From Synechococcus sp. A15-28 (GTDB taxonomy: Bacteria > Cyanobacteriota > Cyanobacteriia > PCC-6307 > Cyanobiaceae), in NCBI RefSeq assembly GCF_014280175.1, contig NZ_CP047931.1, forward strand, positions 2,130,001 to 2,162,000: a stretch of DNA of 32,000 bases, read 5' to 3'. Shown here in pieces: positions 8,052 through 32,000 of the stretch. The notes under the pieces are model-generated. The model was not told the DNA's origin. It saw only the letters and a program-made list of their open reading frames with translations, and did not search any database. The position numbers were made by a program, and so were the translations under genes. The stretch's first letter is position 1, and every line of letters begins with the position of its first letter.

Positions 8052-8477
8052 TCAGTCGCTGATGGAAACGCCCATGTTGCGGGCGGTTCCTTCGATGATC
8101 CGCATGGCGGACTCGACGCTGGTGCAATTGAGATCAGGAAGCTTGGTCTTGGCGATCTCCTCGAGCTGGGCCCGGTTGATCGATCCGACATTGCCCTTGG
8201 CGGACTCGCCGGAACCTTTCTCGATCTTGGCGGCCTTGGTGATCAGCACCGACGCTGGAGGCGTCTTGGTGATGAAGGTGAAGCTGCGGTCTTCGTAGAC
8301 CGAGATCTCCACCGGGATCACAAAACCGGCTTTGTCCTGCGTCCGAGCGTTGTACTCCTTGCAGAACATCATGATGTTCACACCGTGCTGACCGAGGGCT
8401 GGGCCCACCGGTGGTGCAGGGTTGGCTTTGCCGGCCTGAAGGGCCAGCTTGATAACTGCGGTGACTTTCTTGGCCAT
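8052..8477 (-). CDS. rplK: 50S ribosomal protein L11
   Basis: 141 aa: [44 protein letters not shown]. Confidence 0.95.
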
Positions 8478-8584
8478 TGACGAACGGCTTTTGACATCTG
8501 CGGATCACCAGGCCCGTGGGCCGAGTGGGGCAGGGTGAAAATCACCCCTGAGGCCGCCCTCCGCAGGGAAGCGGCCGCCGCTGG
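8478..8584 (-). promoter_or_regulatory. structured rplK-rplA leader, candidate L1-binding autoregulatory element
   Basis: 107-nt nusG-rplK spacer. An outer 7-bp helix (CTGCGGA 8498-8504 with TCCGCAG 8560-8566) encloses GGCCC-GT-GGGCC (8511-8522), GGGTGA-AAA-TCACCC (8533-8547) and GAGG-CCGC-CCTC (8550-8561). Confidence 0.35.
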
Positions 8585-9253: not shown

Positions 9254-9272
9254 GGCTGAAAAGGGGTGCGGA

Positions 9273-9563
9273 TCAGCGGAACACCTGGGATGACGCCCAT
9301 CCGAAGAAGCGACTGACGGCGGCGATGCCGGCGGCCGACAGACTCACCATCAGGATCACAGCGATCGACTCGCTGAACAGCTGCTGACGGCTGGGCCAGA
9401 CCACAAGCTTGAGTTCATCGACCGTGGCCGGCAGAAAACCGCGGGGTGCGGCTGGCTCTGCTGGGGTGGTGTCAGGACTCTTGGTTGAGGTGTCCTCGGA
9501 AATCGGGCTGGTCACGGAAGGGGGACCGGGAGTTGACAGGGATGCCGGCAGGCACACTGCCAA
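9273..9563 (-). CDS. secE: preprotein translocase subunit SecE
   Basis: Small ORF just upstream of nusG. The C-terminal half, VDELKLVVWPSRQQLFSESIAVILMVSLSAAGIAAV, matches the SecE TM segment pattern. The exact start is uncertain. Confidence 0.75.
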   Translation of the reverse strand: MAVCLPASLSTPGPPSVTSPISEDTSTKSPDTTPAEPAAPRGFLPATVDELKLVVWPSRQQLFSESIAVILMVSLSAAGIAAVSRFFGWASSQVFR

Positions 9564-9585
9564 ACGAACACCCTACTGGATGCCC

Positions 9586-12291
9586 CTACGACTCCACAGG
9601 CTCAAACGCCAATGAGCTGCCGTCGTCTGTTCCGCAACGAACCCGGATGCCCCGCGCCGAACGGAAACGATCCTCCAGCAGTTGGGTGGCCAGTGGGTTC
9701 TCCAGTTGACGCCGCAGCACCCGGCGCAACGGACGGGCGCCGTACTCCGGTTCATGGCCCTGACGGGCCAGCGAATCCGCCACTGCATCGTCCACATCCA
9801 ATGACAGCCCCTGTTCCGCCATCAGGGAGGCGAGATCGGCCAGTTGCAAACGCACGATCCGCACCAGATCCTTCACCTCCAAAGGGCGGAAGCGAATCAC
9901 TTCATCGATCCGATTGAGAAACTCCGGACGGAACTGACTGGCCAGGGCCGCATCCACCTGCTGCTGGAGCTGGTCGTCATCGCTGGAACCGGACCGGGCG
10001 TGCTCAAGGATCGCCGGGCTGGCCAGGTTGCTGGTCATCACCACCACGGTGTGGCGGAAATCAACGGTCCGCCCCTGGGAATCGGTGAGTCGGCCGTCGT
10101 CCAGAACCTGCAGCAGCAGATTGAACACATCCGGGTGAGCTTTCTCCACTTCATCCAGAAGCAACACGGCGTACGGGCGCCGGCGCACCGCCTCGGTGAG
10201 CTGCCCCCCCTCCTCGTATCCGACGTAGCCCGGCGGAGCACCGATCAGGCGTGCCGAAGCGTTGCGCTCCATCAACTCGCTCATGTCGAGGCGCACCAGG
10301 GCTTCCTCCTCATCAAACAGAGACGTAGCCAGTGCCTTGGCCAGCTCCGTTTTGCCAACACCCGTCGGGCCAAGAAACAGGAACGAACCCACGGGCCGAC
10401 GGGGATCCTTCATCCCGGCCCGCGCCCGTCGGATCGCTGCGGAAACGGCGGCCACCGCTTCCGCCTGGCCGATCACCCGCTCCGCCAAGTGACTCTCCAA
10501 GGCCAGCAGCTTGCGACGTTCTCCCGCTAGGAGGCGCTGCACTGGAATCCCGGTCCAACGGGCCACCAAATCAGCGATGTCCCCCGCCTCCACCTGTTCC
10601 CGCAGCAGTGCCGTCCCCGATGCCTGCGCCTCGGACTGACTGTCTTCCAACGCCTCCCGGCGCTGCTGCACGGTGTGCAGCTGGTCGTACTGCAACCGAG
10701 CGGCCTCCTCCAGATCCCCCTGTCGTTCCGCCTCGGCGATGGCATGACGCAGGTCTTCGTCCTGCTGCAGCAACTGACCAAGCTCCTCCAGCTGGGTGCG
10801 CTCCTCCTGCCAACGCCGGCGCAGATCATCCAGCCGGGAGGACACTTCCAGACGTTGACGCTGCAGCTGGATCCGCTCCTCCTCCGGTGATTGTTCCGCC
10901 GCCAGCAGCGCCAGTTCCACCCGGCGCAGGTCCGCCTCAGCCTCCTCCACCACCTGTGGCTTGGAGGTGACTTCGATCTTCAGCTGAGCCGCGGCCTCGT
11001 CAATCAGATCGATCGCCTTGTCCGGCAGGCAACGGTCGCTGATGTAGCGATCCGCCAATCGATTGGCGGTCTGAATCGCCTCGTCGGTGATGGTGACGCC
11101 ATGGTGAAGCTCGTAGCGCTCCCGCAGGCCCCGCAGGATCTCCAGGCTGAGTTCCAGATCCGGTTCGCGGATCAGCACCTGCTGAAAACGACGGTTGAGG
11201 GCAGGGTCCTTTTCGACAGTGCGTCGGTACTCCTCCGGCGTGGTCGCGCCGATACAGCGCAGGTCCCCCCGCGCCAGGGCGGGCTTGAGCAGGCTGCCCG
11301 CATCGGTGCTGCTGCGGTCGCTTCCAACGATGGTGTGGAGCTCGTCGATGAAGAGCACCACCCCGGAATCGGAGCGACTCACCTCCTCGAGGACAGAGCG
11401 CAGGCGTTCCTCGAACTGACCGCGGAATTTGGCCCCGGCGATCAGGGCACCCAGATCAAGGGCAATCAGTCGAAGCCCCTGCAACGAGTCCGGCACCTCA
11501 CCGGCCACGATCCGCTGGGCCAGGAGCTCGGCGATGGCCGTCTTGCCGACGCCGGGTTCCCCGATCAGCACCGGATTGTTCTTGCTGCGGCGGGACAGCA
11601 CCTTGATCAGGTTGCGAATCTCGCTGTCGCGACCGATCACCGGATCGAGGGAACCAGCCTCTGCCTCCTCAGTGAGATCACGGCCAAAAGCTTCAAGGGC
11701 CGAGGGCTCCTGCTCCAGTTCAACCGGGGGCTGGGCAGGGGTGGGGACAGACGGCTGAACCGATGGCGTCGGCTCTGGAGCCATCACACGGGGGGGCGGT
11801 GCCGGTTGAGGCGTCGGAGCTGGGGTCGGAACAACCGACGGCTGCTGCAGCAGGCTCTCCAGCCGATCAGCCGCAAGGCCCTGGGCCGCAAACAACTCGG
11901 CCCCGATGCGGGGGTCGGCACCAACCGCAACGACCAGCTGAGGCACATCGATCAAACGATCCCCCCAGCGGCCTCGGATCTGCTCAGCGGTCTCCAGCAG
12001 CTGCTCCAGGTCTTCACCGATGAACAACTGATCACCCCGCGCCGGAGGCTGAGCCGCCAGCACATCCTCCAGACGATCCAGGAGATCATCCGAGCGCAGC
12101 GGCAGCGGATCCACCCAGCGCCTGAAGGCCGAATCACTGAACAGCACCTGGATCAGATGCTCAACATCCAGCTGGTCATGGCGCCAGCGACGGGCCATGT
12201 CCTGACCAGCCAGCAGAAGCTCCCAGGCGGGATCGGAAAAACGGTCAGGCTCGTGGGTGAGGCTGCCGCGGGAGGCGGGGGTGCCGGTCAT
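9586..12291 (-). CDS. clpB: ATP-dependent chaperone ClpB (Clp/Hsp100 with two AAA+ modules and a coiled-coil middle domain)
   Basis: 901 aa. Walker A motifs are [12 protein letters not shown] and [13 protein letters not shown] long charged coiled-coil segment separates NBD1 and NBD2. Also has the [12 protein letters not shown] and GARPLRR motifs. Confidence 0.9.
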
Positions 12292-12770: not shown

Positions 12771-14090
<1,320 letters not shown>

Positions 14091-14106
14091 TCGGCAAGCG
14101 TTGCCC

Positions 14107-15759
14107 TCAGCGATTGGAGCCAGGCAACTGCTCCAGTCGCTGGTCCCGGCGAATGCGCACTTGCATGCGGAACCAACCCATGCCCACGGGTATTGCGGCA
14201 GCAGCAGGAAGCACGGCCCAGAGCGGTCGAACACTGGCGCCGACGATGGCAGTGGACAGGGCCAGGCAGCCCAGCAGCACCGACTGACCGATGGACTGCT
14301 GCGCCAGCGTCATGCGTCGGAACTGGCGATCGGACTCTCCCAGACGCACTTGCAGCTGCAGATCACCCTGCTCCAGCCGTTCCAGACTCTCGTCCAGACG
14401 ACGGGGGAGGGCCGCAGCGCGGCTGCTCAACGCTCCCACCTGACGTCCAAGTTCATTGAACAGGTCGCTGGAGCCGGATCCGCTCGACGTCATCAGAGGA
14501 AGGAGGTAAGGCTTAGCTATCGCTACGAGGCTAAAAGCCGGATCGAGGCTGCGGCCGACGCCCTCAAAGGTCGAGAGTGCCCGCATGACGAAGATCAGCT
14601 CCACCGGCAGGCGAAACGGCTGGCCATACACCAGGTCGTAGAGGTCACCGGAGAGCTTGTCGATCACATTGCTGCTGAAGGGAGGGGTGAGGGCCTCCTT
14701 GAGCATCAAACGCACCAACCGGCGGACCGGGCCGACATCAATGCCCCTGGAGATGACCCCCGCCGCCTGCATCTCCTGCACCAGCGCGGCCGAATCTCTC
14801 GCTGCAGCCGCCCGCACCATGGAGCCCAGCCGACGGCGCAGGCCATCGGAGAGCAGCCCCATCATCCCGAAGTCGTAGTAGATGAGAGCGCCATCACTGG
14901 CCACCGCCAGATTGCCGGGATGGGGGTCAGCGTGGAAGAAGCCAAAGCGCACCAACTGCTTGAGGTAGCTGGCTGCTCCGATTTCCGCCACAGCAGAGGG
15001 ATCGATGCCGGCGTCCAGCAGCGCCTCCCGGTCGTTGACCTTGATTCCCGGCAAATAATCAAGGCAAAGCACCCGACGGGTGCTTTGCTCCCAAACCACC
15101 GCAGGAATGCGGATGCGCTCGTCGTCGAGGAACTGCTGACGGAAGCGGGCTGCGTACTGCGCCTCAACCCTGAAATCCAGTTCCCGCAACAACACCCGCC
15201 GACACTCCCGTGCCATCGCCGGCCAGTCGCGCCCGCGCCCCCAACTTGGGTGACGCTGAAGCACTGCCGCCACCTGCTGCATCACCTCCAGATCCAGCCG
15301 GAACAACGTGTCGAGCCCGGGCCGTTGGATCTTCAGCACCACCTGCCGGCCACTGCGCAGGCTGGCCCGGTGCACCTGGGCCAAAGAGGCGGCACCCAAA
15401 GGCACCGGATCGAGGTCAATCACTTCGGCGCAACGGGGCCCCAGCTCCTCTTCCAGGACGGTTTGCACCTGCTCAAAGGGAAACGCGGGAACGCTGTCCT
15501 GCAGGGACGCCAACTCCGCCACCCAGCCGGCCGGGAGGATGTCCGGGCGTGCAGAGAGCAACTGCCCCAGCTTGATGAAGGCCGAGCCCAGCCGCAGCAG
15601 CTCAGCGGTCAGCCAGCGCGCCCGCGCCTGCTGCCTCGCGGCGCGACTGTTCGCGGTCTGCCCACCTCGGTAGGTCCAGGCCTGGCTGTCCCACCACAGG
15701 AACAGCAGCAAGGTGAGGACGGCGCGCCAGATCCGCAGCCCCCGCAGCATCCGACCCAT
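14107..15759 (-). CDS. ABC1/UbiB-family atypical protein kinase
   Basis: 550 aa. FIKLGQLLSARPDILP, AAASLAQVHRA, VLKIQRPGL and FFHADPHPGNL are hallmarks of the ABC1/aarF family. The C-terminal region contains hydrophobic segments. Confidence 0.85.
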   Translation of the reverse strand: MGRMLRGLRIWRAVLTLLLFLWWDSQAWTYRGGQTANSRAARQQARARWLTAELLRLGSAFIKLGQLLSARPDILPAGWVAELASLQDSVPAFPFEQVQTVLEEELGPRCAEVIDLDPVPLGAASLAQVHRASLRSGRQVVLKIQRPGLDTLFRLDLEVMQQVAAVLQRHPSWGRGRDWPAMARECRRVLLRELDFRVEAQYAARFRQQFLDDERIRIPAVVWEQSTRRVLCLDYLPGIKVNDREALLDAGIDPSAVAEIGAASYLKQLVRFGFFHADPHPGNLAVASDGALIYYDFGMMGLLSDGLRRRLGSMVRAAAARDSAALVQEMQAAGVISRGIDVGPVRRLVRLMLKEALTPPFSSNVIDKLSGDLYDLVYGQPFRLPVELIFVMRALSTFEGVGRSLDPAFSLVAIAKPYLLPLMTSSGSGSSDLFNELGRQVGALSSRAAALPRRLDESLERLEQGDLQLQVRLGESDRQFRRMTLAQQSIGQSVLLGCLALSTAIVGASVRPLWAVLPAAAAIPVGMGWFRMQVRIRRDQRLEQLPGSNR

Positions 15760-16136
15760 CAGGAGCGGGCCTCAAGGGCACGGTTGATCTCGGCGATGGA
15801 GGCGCGCAGGCGATCCACCATCTCCTGAGGAGAGCTCGGGTTTGAATCGGTGCTGATGACGGCGGACTCAACGCAGGAATCGGATGCTGGAGGTGGAGGA
15901 GCGTCGCCATGTTCCAGTCGCTCGGCTTCCGCCCGAACCTCGTCCTGGAACAGCTCCCATTCCTGGCGCAGGCGCTCCGGAGCATCCTGAGCGAGCACGG
16001 CAATCTCAGCCGCTGCGTCCGCCAGACCATGACCCAGGCGGGCACTGATCCGGTTGACGGTGGCACGGATGAACGCGTCCGAAGACCCCATGAGCGCCTC
16101 GAGAAGGAGGAAACTCTGGCAGATCCGTTGGTTCAA
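15759..16136 (-). CDS. hypothetical protein
   Basis: 125-aa ORF in line with its neighbours. Its TGA shares one nucleotide with the ATG of the ABC1 kinase gene (TGATG). No recognisable domain. Confidence 0.45.
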   Translation of the reverse strand: MNQRICQSFLLLEALMGSSDAFIRATVNRISARLGHGLADAAAEIAVLAQDAPERLRQEWELFQDEVRAEAERLEHGDAPPPPASDSCVESAVISTDSNPSSPQEMVDRLRASIAEINRALEARS

Positions 16137-20984: not shown

Positions 20985-22097
20985 ATGAGTCAGACCGAGC
21001 GAACGCCGACCCTCATCCTTGGTGGCGGCTTGATGGGGTTGGCCATTGCCCACCAGCTGGCACGGCGTGGAATGGCTGTCCGCGTGATCAGCCGCAAACG
21101 ACGTGAAGCAGCGGGATTTGTGGCTGCCGGGATGCTTGCCCCCCATGCCGAGGGCCTATCGGGCGCTCTGTTGCAACTGGGGCAAACCAGTCTGGAACTC
21201 ATCCCCCGTTGGGTGGGACAGATCGAAGTGGACAGCGGTCTGAGCTGCGGGCTCAGGGCCTGCGGGATCGTCGTTCCTTTTCGGAGCGACGGGGAACGAA
21301 CGCAATACCCCACAGCCAGATATGGGCTGGAACTCAATCGCGTCGAACTCGAGCAAGAACTCCCGGGTATCGGCCCGAGTTGGTCCAGCGGTCTGTTGTT
21401 CGAGCAAGACGGCCAGATCGACAACCGCAGGCAGCTCATGCGCGCACTCGAACGCGCCTGCGTCTCCCTGGGAGTTCAATTTCTAGAGGGCAGCCATGTC
21501 AAGGACATCCAAAGGGACACCTTTGGAGCTCTCAGTGGCGTCGTGATGAAAAGCGCCGAAGGTGATGAATGCCTTCTGGCATGTCAGCAAGCTGTATTGG
21601 CCTGTGGTGCCTGGAGCCATCAACTCATTCCGGAACTCAACGTCTTTCCGGTCAAAGGACAAATGCTGTCCTTGCAAGGGCCAAGGGAAACACTCAAGCG
21701 GGTGATCTTCGGGCCAGGAACCTACATGGTTCCTCGGGAAGACGGTTTGGTGGTTGTGGGCGCAACCAGCGAACGACACGCCGGTTTCGAGGAAGGCCTC
21801 ACCCCTGATGGACAGAAACAGCTGCAAGCAGGGTTGGAGTCGCTTTTACCTGCAGCAGCAGGTTGGCCTCCGATGGAACGGTGGTGGGGATTTAGGCCTT
21901 GCACTCCTGATGAAGCACCTCTTCTGGGCGAGAGTCCCATCCCAAGGCTTTGGCTGGCCTGCGGTCATCACCGCAATGGAGTCCTGCTGGCCGCAATCAC
22001 GGCTCAGATCACTGCAGAGGCACTGAGCGGGATCAACACCAGACAGGACTGTCTTGATGAATTTCGCTGGGATCGCTTCACCAAGGCGCACCCATGA
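20985..22097 (+). CDS. thiO: FAD-dependent glycine oxidase
   Basis: 370 aa. ILGGGLMGLAIAHQLARRG is the dinucleotide-binding fold, and the C-terminal ACGHHRNGVLLA is typical of the ThiO/DAO family. Confidence 0.7.
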   Translation: MSQTERTPTLILGGGLMGLAIAHQLARRGMAVRVISRKRREAAGFVAAGMLAPHAEGLSGALLQLGQTSLELIPRWVGQIEVDSGLSCGLRACGIVVPFRSDGERTQYPTARYGLELNRVELEQELPGIGPSWSSGLLFEQDGQIDNRRQLMRALERACVSLGVQFLEGSHVKDIQRDTFGALSGVVMKSAEGDECLLACQQAVLACGAWSHQLIPELNVFPVKGQMLSLQGPRETLKRVIFGPGTYMVPREDGLVVVGATSERHAGFEEGLTPDGQKQLQAGLESLLPAAAGWPPMERWWGFRPCTPDEAPLLGESPIPRLWLACGHHRNGVLLAAITAQITAEALSGINTRQDCLDEFRWDRFTKAHP

Positions 22098-23427
22098 GCT
22101 CAATACCAGCCCAGAAAAACGGATTCGCAACGCCATTTGAAACACGGCGTTGTTGAGACGGCGTGAGCTCCTGCAACAAAGGTATTCCATCAACACCGAT
22201 CAGCTCCTTACCAGACAACTTGATTTGATTGCGAATGAATGCCTGACGTGTTAATTGCATCGCCTCAGCTTTAGGAACACCCTGCTCGAGATAGCGATAC
22301 ATCTGAACAAAATAAGCAGACGTCACTACATCATCGACATACCAAAGGGTGCCTACTGCACTTCGAGCACCAGCTTGCAATGCAAGTCCGCTGAAACCCA
22401 ATTCAGCATCAGCATCACCCAAAGCTGTTCTGCAGGCACTGAAGACAACCAGATCAAGCGGAACACCCTTACGTTTCTCGCGAAGCGTGGCAAGCTCTTT
22501 CATTGAGAGTGGTCCAGTGCCGGAGTGCAGTTGCGACGCCTCAGGGCCACCGGGCTTAAATTCAGCATGTGTAGCCACATGGAGAGTGCTATATCCAGGA
22601 TCGGACGCTTTATCCAGAAAAGATGAAGGGGTAAATTCCTGATTAAGAAATTTATCTTTTTTTTCGTCCGAAGAAATTCGATTCAGCTCCTGGGGAACCA
22701 ATGGCAAAGCGGCTAAACCTTTGAATTCTGAGGCACCGAGTGCCAGTACACGGTCGTCAGGACTGCTTTTTTGCTCAAAGTCAGTAAGCGCCAGAGACGG
22801 TGTGATCGCAAAAGCAAACCGATCACCGAAATATTGCTGCCCATCACTCAGAGCCGCGAATGGGACTGCCTGAAGTCCACGATCAGCAGCAATCAGCAAT
22901 GTCGTTACCTTTTTGGCTTGAAGGACTGGCTGCAATTCAGAAAAAAAGAGAGCGTAAAGCTGCCGGGATGCTGACTCGGGGTCTTCCACCTTCAAGGGCT
23001 CAAGTCTCGAAAGCTGCATGTATAACTGCCGCAACTGGTCGCGAAACACTTTTGACGAAAGCTCGACGCGAAATCCCTCAGCATCTCCACTAGAAGGAAT
23101 CAATGTAATGTCGAGAAATGAATCAGATTTTGCAGAAGACGTCCTACCTTCCGCCTGAGTATAACGAAAGTGGATCACCGCAGGATTGTATTTTTTGGGA
23201 TCAAATCCAGGGAGCTCTGACACTGACCGCGTCGCCTCCGTATCGGGATTTGGATTGGCAAAAACGTGAATAGGTCTGAGCAGGTCTGATCCAAGAGCGC
23301 AACAGATCAAGACAAAGGCAAGGCGCCAAATTGGGATCAAATTAATTCTCAGAGTCTCAGGTGTCCATCTCACAGGAGATACCAAACCGTCAGGTAACTT
23401 TTGCAGGTACCGGAATTGTTTGATCAC
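22078..23427 (-). CDS. exported CHAT-domain (caspase-fold, clan CD) peptidase
   Basis: 449 aa with a GTG start. N-terminal hydrophobic anchor or signal: IPIWRLAFVLICCALG. The CHAT core runs from LYALFFSELQPVL...LLIAADRGLQAVPFAAL. The dyad contexts are LHVATHAEF (His287, nt 22567-22569) and VVFSACRTALG (Cys332, nt 22432-22434). The C-terminus NPFFWAGIELMG is canonical. AT-rich composition. Confidence 0.8.
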   Translation of the reverse strand: MIKQFRYLQKLPDGLVSPVRWTPETLRINLIPIWRLAFVLICCALGSDLLRPIHVFANPNPDTEATRSVSELPGFDPKKYNPAVIHFRYTQAEGRTSSAKSDSFLDITLIPSSGDAEGFRVELSSKVFRDQLRQLYMQLSRLEPLKVEDPESASRQLYALFFSELQPVLQAKKVTTLLIAADRGLQAVPFAALSDGQQYFGDRFAFAITPSLALTDFEQKSSPDDRVLALGASEFKGLAALPLVPQELNRISSDEKKDKFLNQEFTPSSFLDKASDPGYSTLHVATHAEFKPGGPEASQLHSGTGPLSMKELATLREKRKGVPLDLVVFSACRTALGDADAELGFSGLALQAGARSAVGTLWYVDDVVTSAYFVQMYRYLEQGVPKAEAMQLTRQAFIRNQIKLSGKELIGVDGIPLLQELTPSQQRRVSNGVANPFFWAGIELMGAPW

Positions 23428-26400
23428 TATTGACCTCCTGCTATTTGTTGTCGCAACTGCTGCAAGTAATTACCAATCTGCCCTGCAGATGGCGTACGGC
23501 GGCCTGAAAGTTTAGGCAAGTTCAATGCACCTACAGCTCGATCTGTCGCCGCACTATCACCTTCAGAAACGCCTGCCAAAGCCTGTGAGGCATCAACTCG
23601 TTTTACGTTTACAGCTGCCGATGGTGCCGACTCCTGGCCTCCTGATCCTCCCTGATCTCCTTCAGAGGAGCCTTCTCCTTCTTCGTCAGATCCTGCCTCT
23701 GCGTCTCCTTCTCCTTCTGTTTCTCCTTCACCATCTCCTTCCCCTTCAGCATCTCCTTCCCCTTCAGCATCTCCTTCCCCCTCAGCATCTCCTTCTGCTT
23801 CTGCATCAGCGTCTGCCTCATCGGCACTGTCGTCGGTTCCGCCTTCCTCCGTTGATGTGTCCTCCGAGGAATCAGTGGCAGCTGAGTCATCCGAGGAATC
23901 AGTGGCAGCTGAGTCTGATGTCTCGCCTGCAGCTTCTCCACTTTCTCCAGCAGCTGAGGTTTCGGAGCCAGCTGCTGTATCAGAGCCAGAGCTAGCCTCT
24001 GAATTGGAAACATCAGCCGTTGCGCTAGCAGCGGTTGACTCTGACGTTGCACTGGCCACACCAACAGAGGAGGTAGCAGTCGATGATGTGGAAGACCCCT
24101 CAGAGCTCACCGTAGCAACCTGAAACGAATCACCCAAAGAAAGATCGACTGATGTTCCCTCTGCAGAAAGACTGGACGGAACAAGCGATGCTGCGACTGT
24201 TTCAACTGTATCGTTCACACTCGAGGAAGCGTCAGTTGATCCTGTCTCAGTCGTTGCGGCAACAACTGAAACCACGTCTGAGGTTGAAGCGGCCGAAACA
24301 GGCGCATTAGGCGACATGCTTGCAGTACTCGTTGACGTTGACATTTCAGGAGCTGCAGCAACATCAACAGAAGGGGAAACCATTGGCATAGTCGCTGTTG
24401 TTTCAATAACAGCAATCGCATCCGCAATGGTTTCGACATTGCCTTCGGTTACAAATGTAGAAATGAAGGCATCAATCGTTTCAGGCCCTCCAAAGGGTTG
24501 CTGATCACCGAGGTCGTCAAAAGGTGGTAATTCACCGGGGTCGTCAAAAGGTGGTAATTCACCGGGGTCGCCAAAAGGTGGTAATTCACCGGGGTCGTCA
24601 AAAGGTGGTAATTCACCGGGGTCGCCAAAAGGTGGTAATTCACCGGGGTCGCCAAAAGGTGGTAATTCACCGGGGTCGCCAAAAGGTGGTAATCCACCGG
24701 GGTCGCCAAAGGTTGGTTGATCAAGTATTGATTCCGGCGTTAGCTCTAGCGTCGGATCTGGCTCATCCTCTTCCTCTGGCTCTGGTGTCAGCTCTAGAGA
24801 AGGGGAAGCAGAAATCTGTGAAGAGCAAAGGTTGGAGGTCCCACTGCCTGAACAAGTCGCCGTAAGAGATGCTCTCGAAGCACTGCCCGCATTTACGGTC
24901 AATCGACCAGCCACAACCTTTGTCGAACCTGAGTAGGTAAGTTCTCCTAATCCACCACTCGAGGAATCAAAATACTTAAGCGTCCCTTCTCCATCCTTGA
25001 CGAAGTTTCCGGGCCCAGAAAATGTCATATTATCTATCGAAACAGTACTTCCAGAGGCAACAAAGAGAGTTTGATCGCCGGGGCCGAGAGTCACACTAGC
25101 TAGCGAACCACCCGAAGAGGTACCGAGAGGGATATCAGTTAAAGATGAGATTTTCGCATTATTTTCAAGCGAGATATTCGTACTTGAAAGAAGAGCATTA
25201 GCACTTGAAAATTGAATGTCAGCCGAGTCAATAGAAACCGCCCCAGCAATAGTAGAATCCCCAGCAAGCTTAAAAGCACCATTATTGTTAACAGTTAAAG
25301 CCTGGTCGTATGCTATGTCGCCAATAGTATTCCTTAAATTAATTCCATCGCTAAGGCTTGGAGCAATCGAATCAAAGAATGTAGAAACAGTTCCGCCACC
25401 ACCAGAAGCATTACCGCCAATTCGCAAATTACAGCTGGACGACGATCCACAACTACTCCCAACAGTCACCATTGCTGCAGCAGACAAACTCGTGGTGTCG
25501 TTCAGAAGCAACTCCCCGCTTAGCGCTTCTAAGGCAGAATCCCCAGTTAGCTCAAATGGATTGGTAATCGTGGCACTACCGGAGACCAACTGTATTATCG
25601 CCTCTCCACTACCAGATGATGAACCAAGAGCCAATTGCTCTGCTAACAGAAAATCGTCTGTAGACGAACCACCAACAATATGAAGTGCAGCCCCCTGATC
25701 AATAGACGTGCCACTGGAGGCAATACCACGAGTAGTGGCCCCCAAAGCACTAGCGCTTGATATCTCTAAAACGCCAGCGCTGACCGACGTTGCACCTTCA
25801 TAAGTATTTGCTCCAGATAACTTCAATGTTCCGGATCCTTCCTTAGTAAGTGATGATCCACTTCCTGAACCAGCAATCACGCCAGAGAAGGTTGTCGACC
25901 CATCAGAATCGGCAATATTGACGGTAAGAGTATTTGAATTGAGATCAGCGTTTCCGGCACCTTGCAACCCACCGATAGTGTCATTAGAGCCAACTTTATA
26001 ATTCGCTCCACTGGCAACATCCACAACTGTTGAGTCTGAAAGAGAGCCTGACAACAAAAGAGTTCCCTCATTAATTGATGTCTCACCCGAAAAAGTGTTT
26101 GCGCCTGATAGTGTCGTAGTCCCACTTCCGGCCTTCGAAAAAGCACCATCACCAGAAATCACACCAGAAAATGTAGTACTCGCATTGTTCAATCCACCAG
26201 CAGTTAAGGTGACACCTGAAGCTAAATCAATGTCGCCAGATCCTGATATTGAACCAATCTCATCTGTAGCATCAACATCAAATGTTGCACCACTACTTAC
26301 ACTTAAAGCTGTATTCGCAAGTGAGCCAGTAACTTTCAACGTTCCGGCCGATAACGACGTTGCTCCTTCATAAGTACTTGCTCCAGACAACTCCAATGTT

Positions 26401-29400
26401 CCGGATCCTTCCTTAGTCAATGATGACCCACTTCCTGAACCAGCAATCACGCCAGAGAAAGTTGTCGACCCATTAGTATCAGCATTATTGACGGTAAGAG
26501 TATTTGAATTGAGATCAGCGCTTCCGGCACCTTGCAACCCACCGATCGTGTCATCAGAACCAACTTTATAATTCGCTCCACTGGCAACATCCACCAATGT
26601 TGAGTCTGAAAGAGAGCCTGACACTAAAAGGGTTCCCTCATTAATCGATGTCTCACCCGAAAAAGTATTTGCACCTGATAGTGTCGTGGTCCCGCTCCCA
26701 GCCTTCGAAAAAGCACCATCACCAGAAATCACACCAGAAAATGTAGTACTCGCATTGCTCAACCCACCAGCAGTCAATTTGACACCTGAAGCTACATCAA
26801 TATCGCCAGATCCTGATATTGAACCAATCTCATCTGTAGCATCAACATCGAATGTTGCACCACTACTTACGCTTAAAGCTGTATTCGCAAGTGAGCCAGT
26901 AAGTTTCAACGTTCCGGCCGATATTGTTGTCGTCCCCGTATACGTATTTGCACCTGATAGTGTTGTAGTCCCACTTCCGGCCTTCGAAAAAGCACCATCA
27001 CCAGAAATCACACCTGAGATTTCTGTACTGGCGTCTGCTCCAGTTTTCAGAGATAGATTATCAAGTCCCCAGTGGTCAAAAATACCACTCCCCCCCGCAC
27101 TAAAACTCTTCTGACGGAAACGAAAAGTAGCGGTGCTTCCTGAAGCAAGGCTATCTACTACAGAATCAGGAATAGAGTATGAATATTTATTCCATTGCCT
27201 ACTAGAAGAGGAAATAGTAATTTCCAACCCGGACGTATATGAACCTCCATCAATGGAATATTCTAAAATAACTTCTTCGCCTAGTTCAACTTCCTCGCCA
27301 CCATTGAAGTCGTCTCCATAAATAAAATCGAATGTAATTGTCGCGCCATCTGTAGGGTCAAAACTATCCGTTGTAGCTTGCCTATCAGATGCGTCGACCC
27401 TGCCAAAAAATAGTGATTTAACTTGACTACCATTATCAAATGAATTGTTAACTCCTTGTTGGCCCGAAATCTGACTAGACGAGGTGATTAAACTTCCAGT
27501 TCCATCACTACTTGACGAAAAATCCTCAGAAGTTGTATTTAAATTACTCAAACCTCCTGCAGTCAACGTTACACCTGACGCCAATTGGATCGCTCCCGCT
27601 CCTGCGAGTGAACCGATAGTGTCGCTTGAATCAACGTCGTAGGTTGCACCACTTTCCACTGTTACCGCTGTCGTATCGGCAAGTGAGCCAGTAACTTTCA
27701 ACGTTCCGGCCGATATTGTTGTCGTACCCGTATACGTATTTGCACCCGAAAGAGTCGTTGTCCCACTTCCAGCCTTACTCAAAGCGCCAGCCCCTGAGAT
27801 CACTCCAGAGAAAGTAGTATCACCGGCTTGTGTAACATCCAAAACTGTTCCCTGTGCGACAACAACTCCACCAGCTCCTGACAAACCACCAGAGTCAGAT
27901 GCCGTAACGAAAACGTTTGATGATGATCCTGGATTCCAATCGATTGATGCCCCCGAATTGATCGCAACACCTGTCTTGGAGTCAAGCGTCAAATCTTTAC
28001 TACTCGCAGATCCGTCACTTATGATAGAAGCATTAATGATTATATCTTTATCAGCAACTAGCGACAAGCTACCGCCAGCACCAGAGTCAACATTTACCTC
28101 ACTTGAAACAGTGATTGTTCCGGCCTCTGCACTTTCTGATCCAGATGCTGCGACTGAGCCACTCCCGACACTACTTGAGGAGGATGCAGTTGATATAGAG
28201 ACATCATTTCCAGCTTCTAGGGCAGTAACAATTGCCGTAGCCTCAGAAGAAGTCAAGGTGTAATCAAACGGATCCAATAGCCACAAACCTTGCTCTCCTT
28301 GAATTGCAGTGGCATCCACATCAATTCCAGCCACATACAACTCAAAGCCAGATGTTTCAATATGACCTCCATCCCCTTCTTTATCACCACCACTCGCCAA
28401 CAACTGTCCTCCAACAGTTGTCACCGACTCAGGGTTGTTGATATCACTCCACACTACAATTTCACCACCATCACCATCAATAATGGCAGACGCATCCAGC
28501 ACCGCTCCTTCTTCAATCTTAGTAGTGATCGCCTGGCGCACCGTTTCATCACTATTTTGCCAACTGCCGCCGACTTCAATCTTTCCACCACCACCGGTTT
28601 GCACCGCCATTAATTCCGTACCATCGCCAACAACAACCTCTTCTCCTGTCAACGTCAACCGTGCTCGGTCGACTTGATCATTGCCAACACTTATCTTGCT
28701 CTCCCGCACCGCCACAACTCCACCCGGTGCGTCAGCAAACAAATCACGATCAATTCGGATATCAATCCCCTCCATCTGAATCACCGGGACCGTGTCATCG
28801 GCATGATTGACAACATCCAGCGAATCCGTACCGCTGAACCCAAGCGCTCCCGGGAGCGGGTTTCCTTTCAGCGCATCAAGATTGGCGGCTCGAGTCTTGA
28901 ATACGTCGAACAGTCCATCGCCAAAACGCAGCGATCTAGTGGTACTCAGATTCAAGCTTGGTACATTAACGAACCCTACACCCGATCCAAGATGAATCCC
29001 TCCTGGCGATAGCCAGTACAGATTTGCCTTTGACGAAAACTGAATAGATTTATTAATATGTGTACCGAGAGGTGATGTCACACCCACTACAAGATTACGC
29101 TTACCTCCTGTATCAATTTGAACGCTCTTGATCTTGCCGCGGGTGTCGAAATCCTTGAACCGCATGAATTTATTGCGGCCAGATTTCTTACCACCACTGA
29201 TGCGGCACACACCAGCACTGCAGCGCCCACCTTTCTGGCCGTTCACCTTGGTGTCGAACCCTTTACCTTGTCCAGCACGAATCTCCGCAGAAGCTGGAGA
29301 CTGGTTCAAGATGCTTGACATCCCCAGGAACACACCCAAGGAGAAACGAATGAAGTTCTTGGAACCAGTTGATGCCATAAACCTTTGTTGAACCAGCCTG

Positions 29401-29429
29401 CCCAAATCGGATGCGTCAGCTTTTAACAC
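23427..29429 (-). CDS. giant TpsA-type exoprotein (filamentous-haemagglutinin-like, with PATR-type beta-strand repeats)
   Basis: 2000-aa uninterrupted ORF. Signal peptide (FSLGVFLGMSSILNQSPASA). The alternative start ATG at 29378 is about equally likely. An N-terminal TPS domain is followed by repeated GSGTTTLSGANTYTGTTTISAGTLK modules, an FGDPGELPP repeat, and a Ser/Thr-rich then Asp/Glu/Gly-rich tail. Confidence 0.85.
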   Translation of the reverse strand: MLKADASDLGRLVQQRFMASTGSKNFIRFSLGVFLGMSSILNQSPASAEIRAGQGKGFDTKVNGQKGGRCSAGVCRISGGKKSGRNKFMRFKDFDTRGKIKSVQIDTGGKRNLVVGVTSPLGTHINKSIQFSSKANLYWLSPGGIHLGSGVGFVNVPSLNLSTTRSLRFGDGLFDVFKTRAANLDALKGNPLPGALGFSGTDSLDVVNHADDTVPVIQMEGIDIRIDRDLFADAPGGVVAVRESKISVGNDQVDRARLTLTGEEVVVGDGTELMAVQTGGGGKIEVGGSWQNSDETVRQAITTKIEEGAVLDASAIIDGDGGEIVVWSDINNPESVTTVGGQLLASGGDKEGDGGHIETSGFELYVAGIDVDATAIQGEQGLWLLDPFDYTLTSSEATAIVTALEAGNDVSISTASSSSSVGSGSVAASGSESAEAGTITVSSEVNVDSGAGGSLSLVADKDIIINASIISDGSASSKDLTLDSKTGVAINSGASIDWNPGSSSNVFVTASDSGGLSGAGGVVVAQGTVLDVTQAGDTTFSGVISGAGALSKAGSGTTTLSGANTYTGTTTISAGTLKVTGSLADTTAVTVESGATYDVDSSDTIGSLAGAGAIQLASGVTLTAGGLSNLNTTSEDFSSSSDGTGSLITSSSQISGQQGVNNSFDNGSQVKSLFFGRVDASDRQATTDSFDPTDGATITFDFIYGDDFNGGEEVELGEEVILEYSIDGGSYTSGLEITISSSSRQWNKYSYSIPDSVVDSLASGSTATFRFRQKSFSAGGSGIFDHWGLDNLSLKTGADASTEISGVISGDGAFSKAGSGTTTLSGANTYTGTTTISAGTLKLTGSLANTALSVSSGATFDVDATDEIGSISGSGDIDVASGVKLTAGGLSNASTTFSGVISGDGAFSKAGSGTTTLSGANTFSGETSINEGTLLVSGSLSDSTLVDVASGANYKVGSDDTIGGLQGAGSADLNSNTLTVNNADTNGSTTFSGVIAGSGSGSSLTKEGSGTLELSGASTYEGATSLSAGTLKVTGSLANTALSVSSGATFDVDATDEIGSISGSGDIDLASGVTLTAGGLNNASTTFSGVISGDGAFSKAGSGTTTLSGANTFSGETSINEGTLLLSGSLSDSTVVDVASGANYKVGSNDTIGGLQGAGNADLNSNTLTVNIADSDGSTTFSGVIAGSGSGSSLTKEGSGTLKLSGANTYEGATSVSAGVLEISSASALGATTRGIASSGTSIDQGAALHIVGGSSTDDFLLAEQLALGSSSGSGEAIIQLVSGSATITNPFELTGDSALEALSGELLLNDTTSLSAAAMVTVGSSCGSSSSCNLRIGGNASGGGGTVSTFFDSIAPSLSDGINLRNTIGDIAYDQALTVNNNGAFKLAGDSTIAGAVSIDSADIQFSSANALLSSTNISLENNAKISSLTDIPLGTSSGGSLASVTLGPGDQTLFVASGSTVSIDNMTFSGPGNFVKDGEGTLKYFDSSSGGLGELTYSGSTKVVAGRLTVNAGSASRASLTATCSGSGTSNLCSSQISASPSLELTPEPEEEDEPDPTLELTPESILDQPTFGDPGGLPPFGDPGELPPFGDPGELPPFGDPGELPPFDDPGELPPFGDPGELPPFDDPGELPPFDDLGDQQPFGGPETIDAFISTFVTEGNVETIADAIAVIETTATMPMVSPSVDVAAAPEMSTSTSTASMSPNAPVSAASTSDVVSVVAATTETGSTDASSSVNDTVETVAASLVPSSLSAEGTSVDLSLGDSFQVATVSSEGSSTSSTATSSVGVASATSESTAASATADVSNSEASSGSDTAAGSETSAAGESGEAAGETSDSAATDSSDDSAATDSSEDTSTEEGGTDDSADEADADAEAEGDAEGEGDAEGEGDAEGEGDGEGETEGEGDAEAGSDEEGEGSSEGDQGGSGGQESAPSAAVNVKRVDASQALAGVSEGDSAATDRAVGALNLPKLSGRRTPSAGQIGNYLQQLRQQIAGGQ
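23733..23804. repeat. 18-nt tandem repeat x4 encoding the acidic (G-E-G-D-A-E)n segment
   Basis: ATCTCCTTCCCCTTCAGC at 23733, 23751 and 23769 (1 mismatch), plus a degenerate copy at 23787. Confidence 0.8.
24486..24720. repeat. 27-nt tandem repeat, 7 near-identical units plus degenerate flanking units, encoding (F-G/D-D-P-G-E-L-P-P)n
   Basis: The unit GTCG(T/C)CAAAAGGTGGTAATTCACCGGG starts at 24513 and recurs every 27 nt to about 24701. It is in frame in the minus-strand CDS. Confidence 0.9.
25690..27810 (-). repeat. array of autotransporter-associated (PATR-type) beta-strand repeat modules, interrupted by a non-repeat insert
   Basis: At least six protein-level copies of SKAGSGTTTLSGAN-T-Y/F-x-G-x-T-x-I-x-x-GTL-x-x-x-GSL. 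DNA-level similarity is visible, for example 26891-26990 versus 27683-27780. Confidence 0.7.
25786..26925. repeat. 570-bp direct tandem duplication (2 copies) inside the giant gene
   Basis: Copy A 25786-26355 and copy B 26356-26925 align without indels. By-eye line-by-line comparison gave roughly 35-40 mismatches (about 93% identity). One unit is 190 aa and spans several PATR modules. Confidence 0.85.
28260..29267 (-). other. TPS (haemagglutination-activity-type) secretion domain of the giant protein, approx aa 55-390
   Basis: CRISGGKKSGRNKFMRFKDFD parallels I-T/S-GG...G-N-x-F-x-x-F. ANLYWLSPGGIHLGSG sits in the position of the NPNGI motif. GGEIVVWSD, GGDKEGDGGHIETSG and GLWLLDPFDY match patterns seen in large FhaB/COG3210-type exoproteins. 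Confidence 0.7.
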
Positions 29430-29617
29430 AGCCTCGCACAGATGTGCAAATCACCCATACAATCATAAATAAAAAACTATATTATTCTTCAATTGTCCAT
29501 GAATTTTGTGTTGAATTGGCAACTGAAGTCCACTGCTTTGTCAAGCCAAAACCTGTAGGCGACAGTCATCACAGTGGCTTTCGCCGATTCTAGTGACAAT
29601 AGCCAAACGTAAAATCG
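29430..29617. promoter_or_regulatory. AT-rich divergent control region between tpsA and tpsB
   Basis: 188-nt spacer between divergently oriented genes and the most AT-rich stretch in the window (for example ATAAATAAAAAACTATATTATTC). Contains a TATATT -10-like hexamer at 29479-29484 and two TGAATT copies 12 nt apart (29511 and 29523). No transcription start can be proven from sequence. Confidence 0.35.
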
Positions 29618-31303
29618 TTGGTTGCCGTGCTGCTCCTGGCCCAGCTTGTTGCTCCCCCACTTCAGCCGGGGCCTGTTCGCCTACCGAACACGGCTCCTCA
29701 GCAGCGGCCCAAGGACGATGGGGCAGTGTTCAAGGTTCCGCCGGGATCTTCCGCCGATCCCAAAAATACTGAAAGCAATCAGGATGCTGACGCCGCAGAC
29801 CCATCAACAAGCGACTGGAGGCCGGAGATTATCGGAGAGACGCCGTACTCCAACGAACAGATTCAACAGATCCTCAGCGGCTGTGGCAAAGCCAGCATTA
29901 ACGCGACGTTGAACGCCTGCGCAGCACAGCTCACAGCTCGGCTCATCCAGGACGGTTACGTCAACAGCCGCGTCTACAGCCTCAAAACTCCGGCCCCAGG
30001 TGCTCTGGAAGTGGTTCTGGGCACGATTGCTGAACTGCGGATCAACAGTGAAGACGAAGCTTTACAGCGGCAGATCCAGGAGCAACTGACCCCTCTGATT
30101 GGCAGTGTGCTTCACATCCCCACGCTGGAAAAGGAACTTGCTCGCGCCCGCCGACGAGGAGCTGGAACGATCAAGGGAGGGATGGGACGCCTGGGCAGCG
30201 ACCCCACCAAAGCGATGGTGAATCTCACGATTACACCTGCCGAACCGGAACCACTCAACGGAGACATTGCCCTCGGAAACAATGGCAATGTCGGAAGCGG
30301 TGAATGGCGTGGTGTCGCCACGCTTCTCCAGAAAGGTCTGATCGAACGAGGGGACACAGCCCTGCTGTTTCTGGAGTTGAACAGCGATGGTGATCTGGAG
30401 TTAGGTAGCAAGGTTGCCTCTCTCACCTACACCTACCCTCTCGGGGACAACTGGTCGGTCACAGGGTCCTTCGGCGTCAGCTTCCGCCGCTTTGTGGAAT
30501 TTCAGAAGCCGGCTTACAACTTCAGTTTCCGCACACTGCAAGGGCTGCTGCAATTGGAGACAACTCTGCAGGAGTCTGAAAATTTCACATGGACCGCTGC
30601 AGCAGCATTCAGCACCAATCGCAGTGACAGCTTCAAATCAGGGCGCAGTTTCCCGCTTGTCAGCGGCGGTGGAAACGATGGCTGGTCTCACAGTGGTTTT
30701 CTCAAACTCAGCACCAACGTTGGTGGATTCACCGGACCGCTGTTCTGGAACACCAATGCTTATTTCAGCCAGGGCATTGCCGGAGTGACCCTTGATGAAC
30801 ACCTCCACAACTTGGATGTTGCAGGAATTGAACCAGGCGAGGCTCGTGCTGTCGGAGCGCTGACTGACATCGGTTTAAGCCTGTCTCCAACGACCACCGT
30901 CAACATCAGATTGGCTGGTCAGCTTGCCTTCAATCGCCTGCCAGGAAGCATGAGCTTCGGTCTCGGCAGTGCTGTAGGCCTACGGGGACTTCCAGGAAGT
31001 CTGATCGGAGGAGATAGTGGATATCTGGCGACTGGGGAAGTTGTTTGGACCCCGTGGCAGAAGGATGAACAAAGGATTTCTCTCATTCCCTACCTGGGTA
31101 TCGGTGGTGTTCACACCGCTACGAGTGTTGCAACTCTGGAAGACAGCATCGGGGTGACCGGGCTGATCGGCCGCTATCAAAACGGCCGATGGGAAGCGGA
31201 ACTCGGCTGGGTCGACACGTTTAAGTCAAACGACAACCCGGGGCTGTGGAACGACTGGATCCTCGGCCACGGGCTGCACACCATGCTCCGTTACAGCTTC
31301 TGA
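29618..31303 (+). CDS. TpsB-type (ShlB/FhaC/HecB family) outer-membrane transporter with POTRA domains
   Basis: 561 aa. POTRA-like segments (IIGETPYSNEQIQQIL, LIQDGYVNSRVY, LEVVLGTIAELRI, LHIPTLEKEL). The C-terminal half has alternating beta-strand character and ends in MLRYSF, an aromatic terminus typical of OM barrels. The start is TTG at 29618 or GTG at 29627. Confidence 0.75.
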   Translation: MVAVLLLAQLVAPPLQPGPVRLPNTAPQQRPKDDGAVFKVPPGSSADPKNTESNQDADAADPSTSDWRPEIIGETPYSNEQIQQILSGCGKASINATLNACAAQLTARLIQDGYVNSRVYSLKTPAPGALEVVLGTIAELRINSEDEALQRQIQEQLTPLIGSVLHIPTLEKELARARRRGAGTIKGGMGRLGSDPTKAMVNLTITPAEPEPLNGDIALGNNGNVGSGEWRGVATLLQKGLIERGDTALLFLELNSDGDLELGSKVASLTYTYPLGDNWSVTGSFGVSFRRFVEFQKPAYNFSFRTLQGLLQLETTLQESENFTWTAAAAFSTNRSDSFKSGRSFPLVSGGGNDGWSHSGFLKLSTNVGGFTGPLFWNTNAYFSQGIAGVTLDEHLHNLDVAGIEPGEARAVGALTDIGLSLSPTTTVNIRLAGQLAFNRLPGSMSFGLGSAVGLRGLPGSLIGGDSGYLATGEVVWTPWQKDEQRISLIPYLGIGGVHTATSVATLEDSIGVTGLIGRYQNGRWEAELGWVDTFKSNDNPGLWNDWILGHGLHTMLRYSF

Positions 31304-31763: not shown

Positions 31764-31867
31764 AAAAAAAGTCCGTGTGTCGCGCCATCGTCCGTGGCCA
31801 CCCTGCCGCTTGGCAAGCACACCATTCCGAACAGTCTCTATCTTTTAGAGATTCTTACCCGCACGCC

Positions 31868-32000
31868 ATGGTCTTGACGGCGGCTGAACGGCCCTGGTCT
31901 GTGGCCCAGAGCGCGGCGTTGTACGGCCTGGAGCGCTGGGGCGATCCCTACTTCTCGATCAACGCCAAAGGACATGTCGTGGTGCAACCACGGGGGGATC
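31868..32000 (+). CDS. speA: biosynthetic arginine decarboxylase, 5' fragment (runs off the window)
   Basis: MVLTAAERPWSVAQSAALYGLERWGDPYFSINAKGHVVVQP matches the SpeA N-terminal pattern (W..S..LY.i..WG..YF.IN..G.v.V). Only 44 codons are visible. Confidence 0.6.
   Translation, partial: MVLTAAERPWSVAQSAALYGLERWGDPYFSINAKGHVVVQPRGD

Follow-up and report, generated by a model that had tools for sequence, protein, structure and literature searches.

Introduction

In two-partner secretion (TPS), or type Vb secretion, a large TpsA protein enters the periplasm via Sec and threads through a TpsB transporter, and the C-terminus of the TpsA leaves the periplasm last, if ever. Although such systems are well studied in pathogens, to our knowledge none of the characterised TpsA proteins has a caspase-fold protease for a C-terminal module. 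The locus described here lies in a stretch of 32,000 nucleotides of the Synechococcus sp. A15-28 genome (contig NZ_CP047931.1, positions 2,130,001 to 2,162,000; the whole stretch is called the window below) and consists of three adjacent genes that encode a TpsB transporter, a TpsA of 2000 codons and a peptidase of the CHAT family. Judged by its sequence, it is a type Vb secretion system with a cargo that carries a CHAT peptidase at its end, split in this genome, and TpsB-dependent translocation is predicted. The CHAT protein is very probably a detached C-terminal TpsA module that needs export. The reading favoured here, to which we give a probability of about 0.5, is that of a periplasmic, tail-docked CHAT protease at the base of a TpsB-threaded fibre, linked to cyclic AMP (cAMP) signalling.

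The closest described secretion systems are HMW1A/HMW1B and HxuA/HxuB of Haemophilus influenzae and EtpA/EtpB of enterotoxigenic Escherichia coli (TPS 'family 2'), which resemble the locus in their N-terminal profile, their β-helical adhesin-like passenger and the adjacent tpsB gene. In HMW1 and HxuA the C-terminus is retained in the periplasm, fastened in the pore of TpsB by a disulfide loop (PMC5422565). A Cys-x8-Cys loop of the window TpsA may serve as an anchor by analogy, but it lies ~465 residues before the C-terminus and not at the end. Behind this loop come a lengthy tail of low complexity, a predicted helical motif and then the CHAT protein, and the host is a cyanobacterium with no known pathogenic role. 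No HMW1C/EtpC-like glycosyltransferase gene is present between ndk and thiO, the part of the window covered by this check.

FhaB/FhaC of Bordetella resembles the locus in the TpsB profile (1e-18) and in the proline-rich array and conserved extreme C-terminus of the TpsA, and the periplasmic C-terminal part of FhaB that controls its maturation is the nearest functional analogy. FhaB is processed by the unlinked proteases SphB1, CtpA and DegP. The window TPS domain belongs to another subfamily, and here the protease is the TpsA's own, or formerly own, C-terminal domain and has a caspase fold; the likeness to the FhaB prodomain is one of layout and not of compared sequence.

On the side of the peptidase, the CHAT fold is shared with the anti-sigma factor DdvA of Myxococcus xanthus, a TPR-CHAT protein whose CHAT domain is periplasmic and is proposed to transduce an envelope signal by proteolysis (PMC11506125). 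The features particular to DdvA are a membrane anchor, TPR repeats, an incomplete active site, control of a sigma factor of the extracytoplasmic function (ECF) type and the lack of a TPS partner. Csx29, the TPR-CHAT protein of Craspase, and separase have in common with the window protein the His-Cys dyad and a two-lobed CHAT module; both are cytoplasmic, are regulated by RNA or securin, and have a TPR or helical N-terminal region. Nearest of all are cyanobacterial proteins in which TPS and CHAT domains are fused, which are homologous to the window proteins over the TPS domain, β-helix, motif and CHAT; the window differs in having two genes, the second with its own leader. The locus fits the Syn_GI122 genomic-island module of marine Synechococcus, which has a single-sentence, annotation-level mention (Doré et al. 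2020); the passage that describes it does not speak of TPS secretion, of fusion or fission, or of a mechanism. Literature searches gave no experimental work on TPS-CHAT proteins or on a connection between them and CHASE2 or DUF928, in agreement with an earlier reading of the window from its letters alone (the sequence-only reading), which knew of no experimental characterisation of such a trio. While the TPS-CHAT fusion is already visible in database annotations, the literature found describes neither the recurrent splitting with gain of a leader nor the tail motif nor the CHASE2/DUF928 link.

Architecture of the locus

ORF listing and translation find the three adjacent open reading frames (ORFs) of the sequence-only reading at the positions given in Table 1, and its assignment of the locus to two-partner secretion is borne out by the profile matches of both partners, TpsB to FhaC/CdiB and TpsA to EtpA/HMW1. 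Comparisons below draw on a set of loci (L numbers), 40 of them from a genome scan (marine Synechococcus, Cyanobium, Vulcanococcus and some Prochlorococcus, including MIT 0707) and 80 from a metagenome scan.

The CHAT protein matches Pfam CHAT (PF12770) with an E-value of 6.6e-50 and 170.6 bits, and its translation contains LHVATHAEF, VVFSACRTALG and the NPFFWAGIELMG end, so that the full domain with its His and Cys dyad contexts is present as first described. The dyad, whose conservation in orthologues had been put up for checking, is invariant among 49 close homologues; among 143 representatives, clustered at 50% identity and reaching down to 34% identity, His287 is kept in 142 and Cys332 in 141, the remainder being gaps. 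In the AlphaFold2 (AF2) model (mean predicted local distance difference test, pLDDT, 74), which places a helix at residues 33-45, the fold is recognised by Foldseek as closest to Csx29 (4.5e-11), followed by DdvA (8rot, 8e-8) and separase (~3e-5), along with SAVED-CHAT and caspase-1/4. A CHAT profile gave zero matches among PDB sequences, and the kinship was found by the fold search. On sequence and model, the protein is a member of the CHAT peptidase family with a caspase-like fold, and peptidase activity is predicted. Exact database look-ups gave no record for the window CHAT protein or for its relative P0099.

The final G of the TAG stop of the giant tpsA gene is shared with the GTG start of the CHAT ORF, and a perfect AGGAGG stands 6 nt ahead of the GTG; V19 (GTG) and L30 (TTG) are alternative in-frame starts. 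The ratio of nonsynonymous to synonymous substitution rates (dN/dS) of CHAT is ~0.05 against L003, L004 and L012, with dS saturated. This ratio and the Shine-Dalgarno sequence ahead of the start indicate that the split CHAT gene is functional and under strong purifying selection. A lipoprotein signal was considered for the CHAT leaders and ruled out, since their Cys residues give no consistent lipobox fit.

The giant protein gives no direct Pfam match for a TPS domain, and NCBIfam TIGR01901 reaches only 17 bits (cutoff 29.1). A profile of its N-terminus and homologues (A2) matches the PDB sequences of EtpA (8vba, E=2e-89) and of the HMW1 TPS domain/pro-piece (2odl, E=9e-39), and PF05860 is carried by homologues up to 82-92% identical. 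These matches assign the TPS domain to the HMW1/HxuA/EtpA subfamily and uphold the TPS domain and signal peptide first claimed for the 2000-aa protein, direct Pfam being silent. The C70/C75 pair is present in this domain, and SPGGI stands where NPNG is expected. The true start is probably ATG 29378 (M18), which gives the predicted signal peptide MASTGSKNFIRFSLGVFLGMSSILNQSPASA. The passenger varies in length and content from strain to strain, as expected for a surface protein facing phage and grazers; the Reelin-subrepeat-B-like module of the window TpsA is unusual in a bacterial β-helix adhesin. The window TpsA has exactly three Cys pairs, one of which is the Cys-x8-Cys loop, and the proline-rich array in the tail is a tandem repeat of 27 bp x 7.9 (24505-24717). 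The motif at the end of the tail has a consensus of about ...VDA..A...GD..AT.RT...LNLP.LSGRRTP....I...LQQ.RQ.. among the split TpsAs, and in fused proteins it sits just ahead of a short linker and CHAT.

The tpsB gene adjoins tpsA divergently, and its product has the Omp85 barrel and POTRA domains of a type Vb transporter. Pfam ShlB matches with 30.7 bits (cutoff 22.7), and POTRA_2 is borderline at 23.4 bits, 0.6 below its cutoff of 24. A search with the single sequence gave no match among PDB sequences, and only a profile of orthologues (A7) found CdiB (6wim, 1e-26) and FhaC (4qky, 1e-18) over positions 35-515, nearly the full length. The protein is laid out as a conserved N-terminus (MLLLAQLVAPPLQPGPVRLP), a proline-rich stretch, POTRA domains and a barrel with the C-terminus ...RYSF, and the Omp85 transporter with POTRA-type segments and an aromatic end is thus found as reported. 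Comparison of orthologue N-termini makes GTG 29627 the probable true start. The N-terminus M-LLLLAQLVAPPLQPGPVRLP (29618-29690) is almost invariant (L001, L012, L015-L041) and begins at a Met with stops a few codons before it. Both a charged n-region and an obvious signal-peptidase site are lacking, which is odd for the signal peptide of an outer-membrane protein, and such strong conservation is likewise unusual for a signal peptide.

Table 1. Features of the TPS-CHAT locus, in window coordinates
Feature	Position	Strand	Evidence or remark
CHAT peptidase gene, 449 aa, probable detached C-terminal module of TpsA	22078..23427	-	Pfam CHAT, AF2, Foldseek, fused relatives
CHAT module: N-terminal β/α subdomain (residues 75-152) and Pfam CHAT domain (153-446)	22090..23205	-	Pfam, conservation
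Predicted catalytic His287	22567-22569	-	conserved dyad
Predicted catalytic Cys332	22432-22434	-	conserved dyad
Signal-peptide-like N-terminus of CHAT, residues 1-57	23257..23427	-	h-region LAFVLICCALG (23290-23322); possible cleavage HVFA/NPNP
TpsA, HMW1/EtpA-class two-partner secretion cargo, 2000 codons	23427..29429	-	likely start ATG 29378
Putative Sec signal peptide of TpsA, M18-A48, ...SPASA/EIRAG cleavage	29286..29378	-	read from translation; orthologue ORFs (L025) begin similarly
TPS secretion domain and first β-helix turns, ~residues 49-430	28140..29285	-	profile A2; PF05860 on homologues
Variable passenger: six PATR repeats and Reelin-subrepeat-B-like insert	24915..28139	-	Pfam PATR 2.6e-54
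Reelin_subrepeat-B-like domain, residues 668-793	27051..27428	-	Pfam 5e-11; inserted between PATR repeats
Cys-x8-Cys loop ATCSGSGTSNLC, C1526/C1535, passenger end	24825..24860	-	kept in fused L025, L027, L029, L030, L034, L040
Low-complexity tail: proline-rich PPFGDPGEL repeats, then Ser/Thr-rich, acidic (EGEGDA)	23631..24824	-	translation, repeat analysis
Conserved C-terminal motif of TpsA, residues 1934-2000 (67 residues), ...VDASQALAGVSEGDSAATDRAVGALNLPKLSGRRTPSAGQIGNYLQQLRQQ...	23430..23630	-	at end of every split TpsA examined
TpsB, FhaC/CdiB-type Omp85 transporter, 561 aa	29618..31303	+	Pfam ShlB; orthologue profile against CdiB/FhaC
Divergent intergenic region tpsB/tpsA, AT-rich, GC 0.40	29430..29617		both promoters presumably here

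Fused relatives and probable recurrent fission

A HMMER search with the CHAT protein returned 36,029 relatives, and domain layout was analysed in the best 150 representatives. In 105 of these 150, CHAT stands at the extreme C-terminus of a protein of at least 800 aa, and 91 of the 105 have an N-terminus homologous to the window TpsA. Pfam finds TPS and CHAT in one chain in P0212 (TPS 146 bits), P0230 (129) and P0205 (137) and also in P0125 and its relatives P0385-P0392, and PATR with CHAT, or sub-threshold TPS with CHAT, occurs in relatives whose CHAT is 53-61% identical. At the level of loci, a single TPS-to-CHAT ORF of 1300-2200 codons is present in L015, L018, L021-L039 and L041, and the split form is present in the window, Synechococcus sp. 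CC9616, L003-L012 and L019. The one-polypeptide form accounts for about two thirds of the related picocyanobacterial loci, besides occurring in filamentous cyanobacteria. In the databases the fusions are named 'CHAT domain-containing protein' or 'filamentous hemagglutinin family protein' and come from Microcoleus, Kamptonema/Oscillatoria, Coleofasciculus, Spirulina and Synechococcus MIT S9509; the fusions in filamentous cyanobacteria that the sequence-only reading had mentioned are therefore real. Its description of the CHAT peptidase as separately encoded is right for the gene in this genome, and this separate state is probably derived, CHAT being a C-terminal domain of TpsA by origin and no accessory brought in from elsewhere. 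Judged by sequence, the family layout is signal peptide, TPS domain, β-helix, low-complexity tail, helical motif and CHAT peptidase. A ShlB-type gene adjoins the fusion in both picocyanobacterial loci for which called genes were listed.

The tail motif ends every split TpsA examined and precedes the linker and CHAT in the fusions, which places the cut of the gene within the linker. A neighbour-joining tree of the CHAT module, unrooted and built from 34 split and 63 fused non-identical modules, places the split forms in six clades, with a Fitch minimum of six changes. As the distant relatives are fused, the six clades probably reflect repeated fissions of a fused ancestor and not fusions, the direction being drawn from an unrooted tree. 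The leaders of the split proteins are mutually unrelated in sequence and resemble textbook Sec signal peptides, e.g., in L095, L103 and L118; examples, with the putative cleavage marked by a slash, are MLNRRLLPFLLGLSLVGLTPRHAWA/A, MTVRLMPLLALVGLLAAAPTARA/A and MQRKAGVRRILSIGSAVALLVGVAHSPIEAQA/N. Their maximal 11-residue hydropathy has a median of 2.25 in the 34 split proteins against 1.22 in the 63 fused linkers (Mann-Whitney p=1.5e-15). No split CHAT carries a TPS domain, and each has a plain hydrophobic leader. Fission, accompanied each time by the gain of a leader, points to the working compartment of the protease without an experiment, and the split form provides a genetic handle by which the protease of this strain could be mutated without touching the adhesin.

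Two further arrangements were seen among the relatives. In the P0253 cluster, P0414 (1197 aa) and P0415 (339 aa) may be another TPS-CHAT split, outside the picocyanobacteria. In the Cyanobium-like L044, two TpsA-CHAT paralogues (1-4498 and 8001-10844) flank a single tpsB and a gene for an MscS channel that binds cyclic nucleotide monophosphates (cNMP); one paralogue has at least 1593 aa and PATR repeats, and the other has 947 aa and a canonical TPS domain.

Conserved neighbours

TpsB is present at 35 of the 37 loci whose sequence extends 6.5 kb or more upstream of CHAT, and a TPS N-terminus like that of the window at 32, in line with the co-occurrence of CHAT with TPS and ShlB genes anticipated by the sequence-only reading. 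Together with the conserved dyad and the leader, this co-occurrence agrees with its view of CHAT as a dedicated partner, predicted to be exported. Four of the TpsB-positive loci are exceptions for the N-terminus (L082, L083, L099 and L121); there CHAT lies within a long open frame upstream or close to one limited by the contig, and the N-termini could represent a different TPS subtype that a window-derived query misses. Wherever the flank suffices, CHAT comes with the TPS N-terminus and TpsB, which on this sequence evidence marks the module as indigenous to the clade rather than a foreign insertion. The family occurs widely, both among picocyanobacteria of the sea and of fresh water, themselves major primary producers, and among filamentous cyanobacteria. 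The contigs of L010, L016, L019 and L026 are filed under metagenome-assembled genomes of Pseudomonadales, Klebsiella, Crocinitomicaceae and Salipiger, probably by binning errors.

In the relatives, the TPS-CHAT and TpsB genes are adjoined by genes for an adenylate/guanylate cyclase with a CHASE2 domain (Pfam), a cNMP-binding MscS channel and a small secreted protein. Counts from the 23 loci that extend 8 kb or more to either side are 21 for the cyclase, 20 for the small protein and 14 for the channel. Gene order varies, with the cyclase 3' of tpsB on the same strand, or 3' of CHAT, or in the order TpsA-CHAT, TpsB, cyclase; examples of the cyclase and MscS genes are L001 1-1029 and L025 12030-13889. 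The small protein has ~215 aa, with an invariant FPGRRVGGGTRGEC motif right after the signal peptide and conserved Cys and Trp residues; it is encoded at L025 11405-12049 (+) and at 60 other loci (e.g., L012 11277-11945 and L071 1286-1921) and adjoins the CHAT gene or the cyclase. Comparison of this FPGRR protein with DUF928 by hhalign gives an E-value of 0.0018 and 15% probability, and one of 18 members matches Pfam DUF928 (E=0.024), which points weakly to a DUF928-like protein in picocyanobacteria.

Two distant metagenomic lineages show the same company. In L043, the genes for a CHASE2 cyclase, DUF928, TpsB and TPS-CHAT follow one another in this order and overlap as an operon, and in L126 TPS-CHAT is followed by DUF928 and CHASE2; in both, DUF928 stands in the position of the small protein. 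The distant-lineage linkage consists of these two contigs only, as a metagenome scan for distant TPS-CHAT contexts gave picocyanobacterial relatives only. Conserved linkage that includes two distant lineages hints at a role in signalling. The inputs of the CHASE2 and DUF928 domains are without a report in the literature found, and their link to the TPS-CHAT module is a possible testable entry point.

The flanks of the trio in the window consist of core picocyanobacterial genes, i.e., ndk, a gene for a thiO-like FAD oxidase, gatB, coaE, argJ and clpB, and CC9616 has the same trio between ndk and thiO. In these two genomes the trio has moved to a place between ndk and thiO. The start of speA occupies window positions 31862-32000 (+), and in CC9616 the CHASE2 cyclase comes next after speA; if the CC9616 order holds, the cyclase and channel would lie past the window end, after speA.

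Proposed function and alternatives

In the favoured reading, TpsB would export the β-helical passenger of TpsA, a step supported by homology, and the tail past the Cys-x8-Cys loop would stay in the periplasm as in HMW1 and HxuA. CHAT would reach the periplasm via its own Sec leader in this strain and as the C-terminus of TpsA in the fused relatives. Because the fused and the leader-borne routes both reach the periplasm and the split CHAT never gains a TPS domain, this is the compartment in which it most simply works. As the split TpsAs keep the tail motif at their C-terminus, CHAT may still recognise the tail, and it would dock on this motif in the periplasm. Its action there would be that of a regulated protease which sits at the fibre's base and cuts the tail, neighbouring periplasmic proteins or both, and the retention or release of the fibre would be coupled to the adjacent CHASE2 cyclase and the cAMP pathway found in relatives. 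That CHAT cleaves the TpsA tail is possible and falls somewhat short of even odds, and a functional coupling of CHAT to the CHASE2 cyclase is more tentative. It is an unlikely extension of this scheme that the trio forms the core of a five-part outside-in sensor, made up of the TpsA fibre in TpsB, the tail-held CHAT, the FPGRRVGGGTRGEC protein, the CHASE2 cyclase and the cNMP-binding MscS channel. If it were true, the protease would be switched when the fibre is disturbed, be it by contact, by pulling or by its loss to phage or grazers, and a cut in the CHASE2 domain or the small protein would set the cAMP level; this would be the first proposed input for CHASE2 and DUF928 and a protease-coupled surface sensor in abundant ocean phototrophs.

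Several points weigh against the proposed periplasmic protease and its link to cAMP. The signal peptide of CHAT is a candidate judged only by hydropathy and the -3/-1 rule, and the leader in the window departs from the usual pattern: its n-region is long if translation begins at the GTG, and a charged residue stands close to the h-region. Sec leaders of cyanobacteria can also direct proteins to the thylakoid lumen, and export is known for certain TpsA C-terminal domains, CdiA-CT among them, which makes it uncertain that a fused CHAT would be retained in the periplasm. The tail motif is modelled as helical with a low pLDDT of 37-62 in P0125, a natural fusion, and its docking on CHAT remains hypothetical. 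For the substrate of CHAT there are only candidates, namely the tail of TpsA, the CHASE2 domain and the FPGRRVGGGTRGEC protein. Neither a CHASE2 cyclase nor a DUF928-like gene was found within the 32-kb window, which ends in speA, and the CHASE2 evidence stems mostly from related, syntenic picocyanobacteria. At one split locus, L103, neither TpsA nor TpsB lies within 10 kb.

A simpler role, a strong rival though somewhat unlikely in our estimate, would be that of a housekeeping maturation or release protease, by which CHAT removes or trims the proline-rich, acidic tail of TpsA as in FhaB and takes no part in signalling, the CHASE2 gene being a syntenic neighbour or an expression regulator. It would account for an intact dyad and for a conserved tail motif next to CHAT in fused and split forms alike, and the proline-rich region and conserved extreme C-terminus resemble what is generally known of the FhaB prodomain. 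Yet self-removal alone would make a split CHAT dispensable, which sits badly with six split clades and strong purifying selection, and CHASE2 and DUF928 remain linked to the module across distant lineages and changes of gene order. A transpeptidase that, like a sortase or PorU, cleaves the tail motif and joins the new C-terminus to an envelope component, thus anchoring the fibre, is highly improbable. Clan CD does include the transamidases PorU and GPI8 and legumain-type ligases, and a conserved C-terminal motif could be a sorting signal, but the motif is internal and not terminal in the fused forms, and the structural neighbours Csx29, separase and DdvA are hydrolases or regulators, with nothing to separate transpeptidation from hydrolysis.

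The sequence-only reading had also offered CHAT as a second cargo or effector to be exported. Outside the cell it could then act on competitors, grazers or phage, or help to acquire nutrients. CHAT in the fusions does occupy the place of CdiA-type C-terminal effector domains, and the passage on the genomic island annotates 'secreted CHAT domain-containing proteins' (Doré et al. 2020). This alternative has lost ground and is now improbable, as independent fissions gave a plain Sec-type leader and never a TPS domain; moreover, CHAT is the most conserved part of the locus (60-98% identical across strains) and the passenger is variable, the opposite of polymorphic toxins, and thiO converges directly on the CHAT gene with no immunity-like ORF. 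Contact-dependent inhibition by a polymorphic toxin was rejected on the same pattern of a conserved CHAT, a varying passenger and no ORF between CHAT and thiO. Anti-phage defence, as in type III-E Craspase or the PADLOC BovA system, was rejected as well: NCBIfam Csx29 scores 15 bits on the window CHAT (cutoff 300), the BovA match covers only the core (260-401), and the neighbours are TpsA, TpsB and housekeeping genes. Finally, upstream of the GTG the CHAT frame, at -1 to that of TpsA, stays open for another 14 codons, as it would be in a decaying, frameshifted fusion whose CHAT half is unexpressed or made by programmed frameshifting. Such decay is scarcely credible in view of the Shine-Dalgarno sequence ahead of the GTG, the dN/dS, the invariant dyad and the leader in each independent split. 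A programmed -1 frameshift joining TpsA and CHAT was rejected, as there is no slippery heptamer and other split loci have gaps of 20-80 nt with stops between the tpsA and CHAT genes.

Base composition and minor observations

The GC content of tpsA and CHAT is 0.48-0.49, against 0.57 for the TpsB gene and 0.63 for the flanks. The deficit of the module is 14 points in this genome and 0-6 points in other strains, and this difference suggests a recent allelic replacement from a relative of lower GC content, perhaps with a breakpoint in or near tpsB. The compositionally distinct insert of the sequence-only reading is thus distinct in its GC content, but it is not foreign, as the module is found clade-wide, at or near the ndk-thiO neighbourhood. 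A scan of the window for consensus promoters and terminators gave nothing above chance. At 22078-22097 the 3' ends of two convergent genes, CHAT (-) and the thiO-like gene (+, 20985-22097), share 20 nt, which leaves no space for a terminator or a further gene 3' of CHAT. Elsewhere in the window, two long ORFs overlap on opposite strands at 14050-15828 (+) and 14107-15759 (-), of which the plus-strand ORF (592 aa) is without a Pfam match. In CC9616, a fumarase-class gene, a possible counterpart of these two ORFs, sits in the gatB-to-coaE interval.

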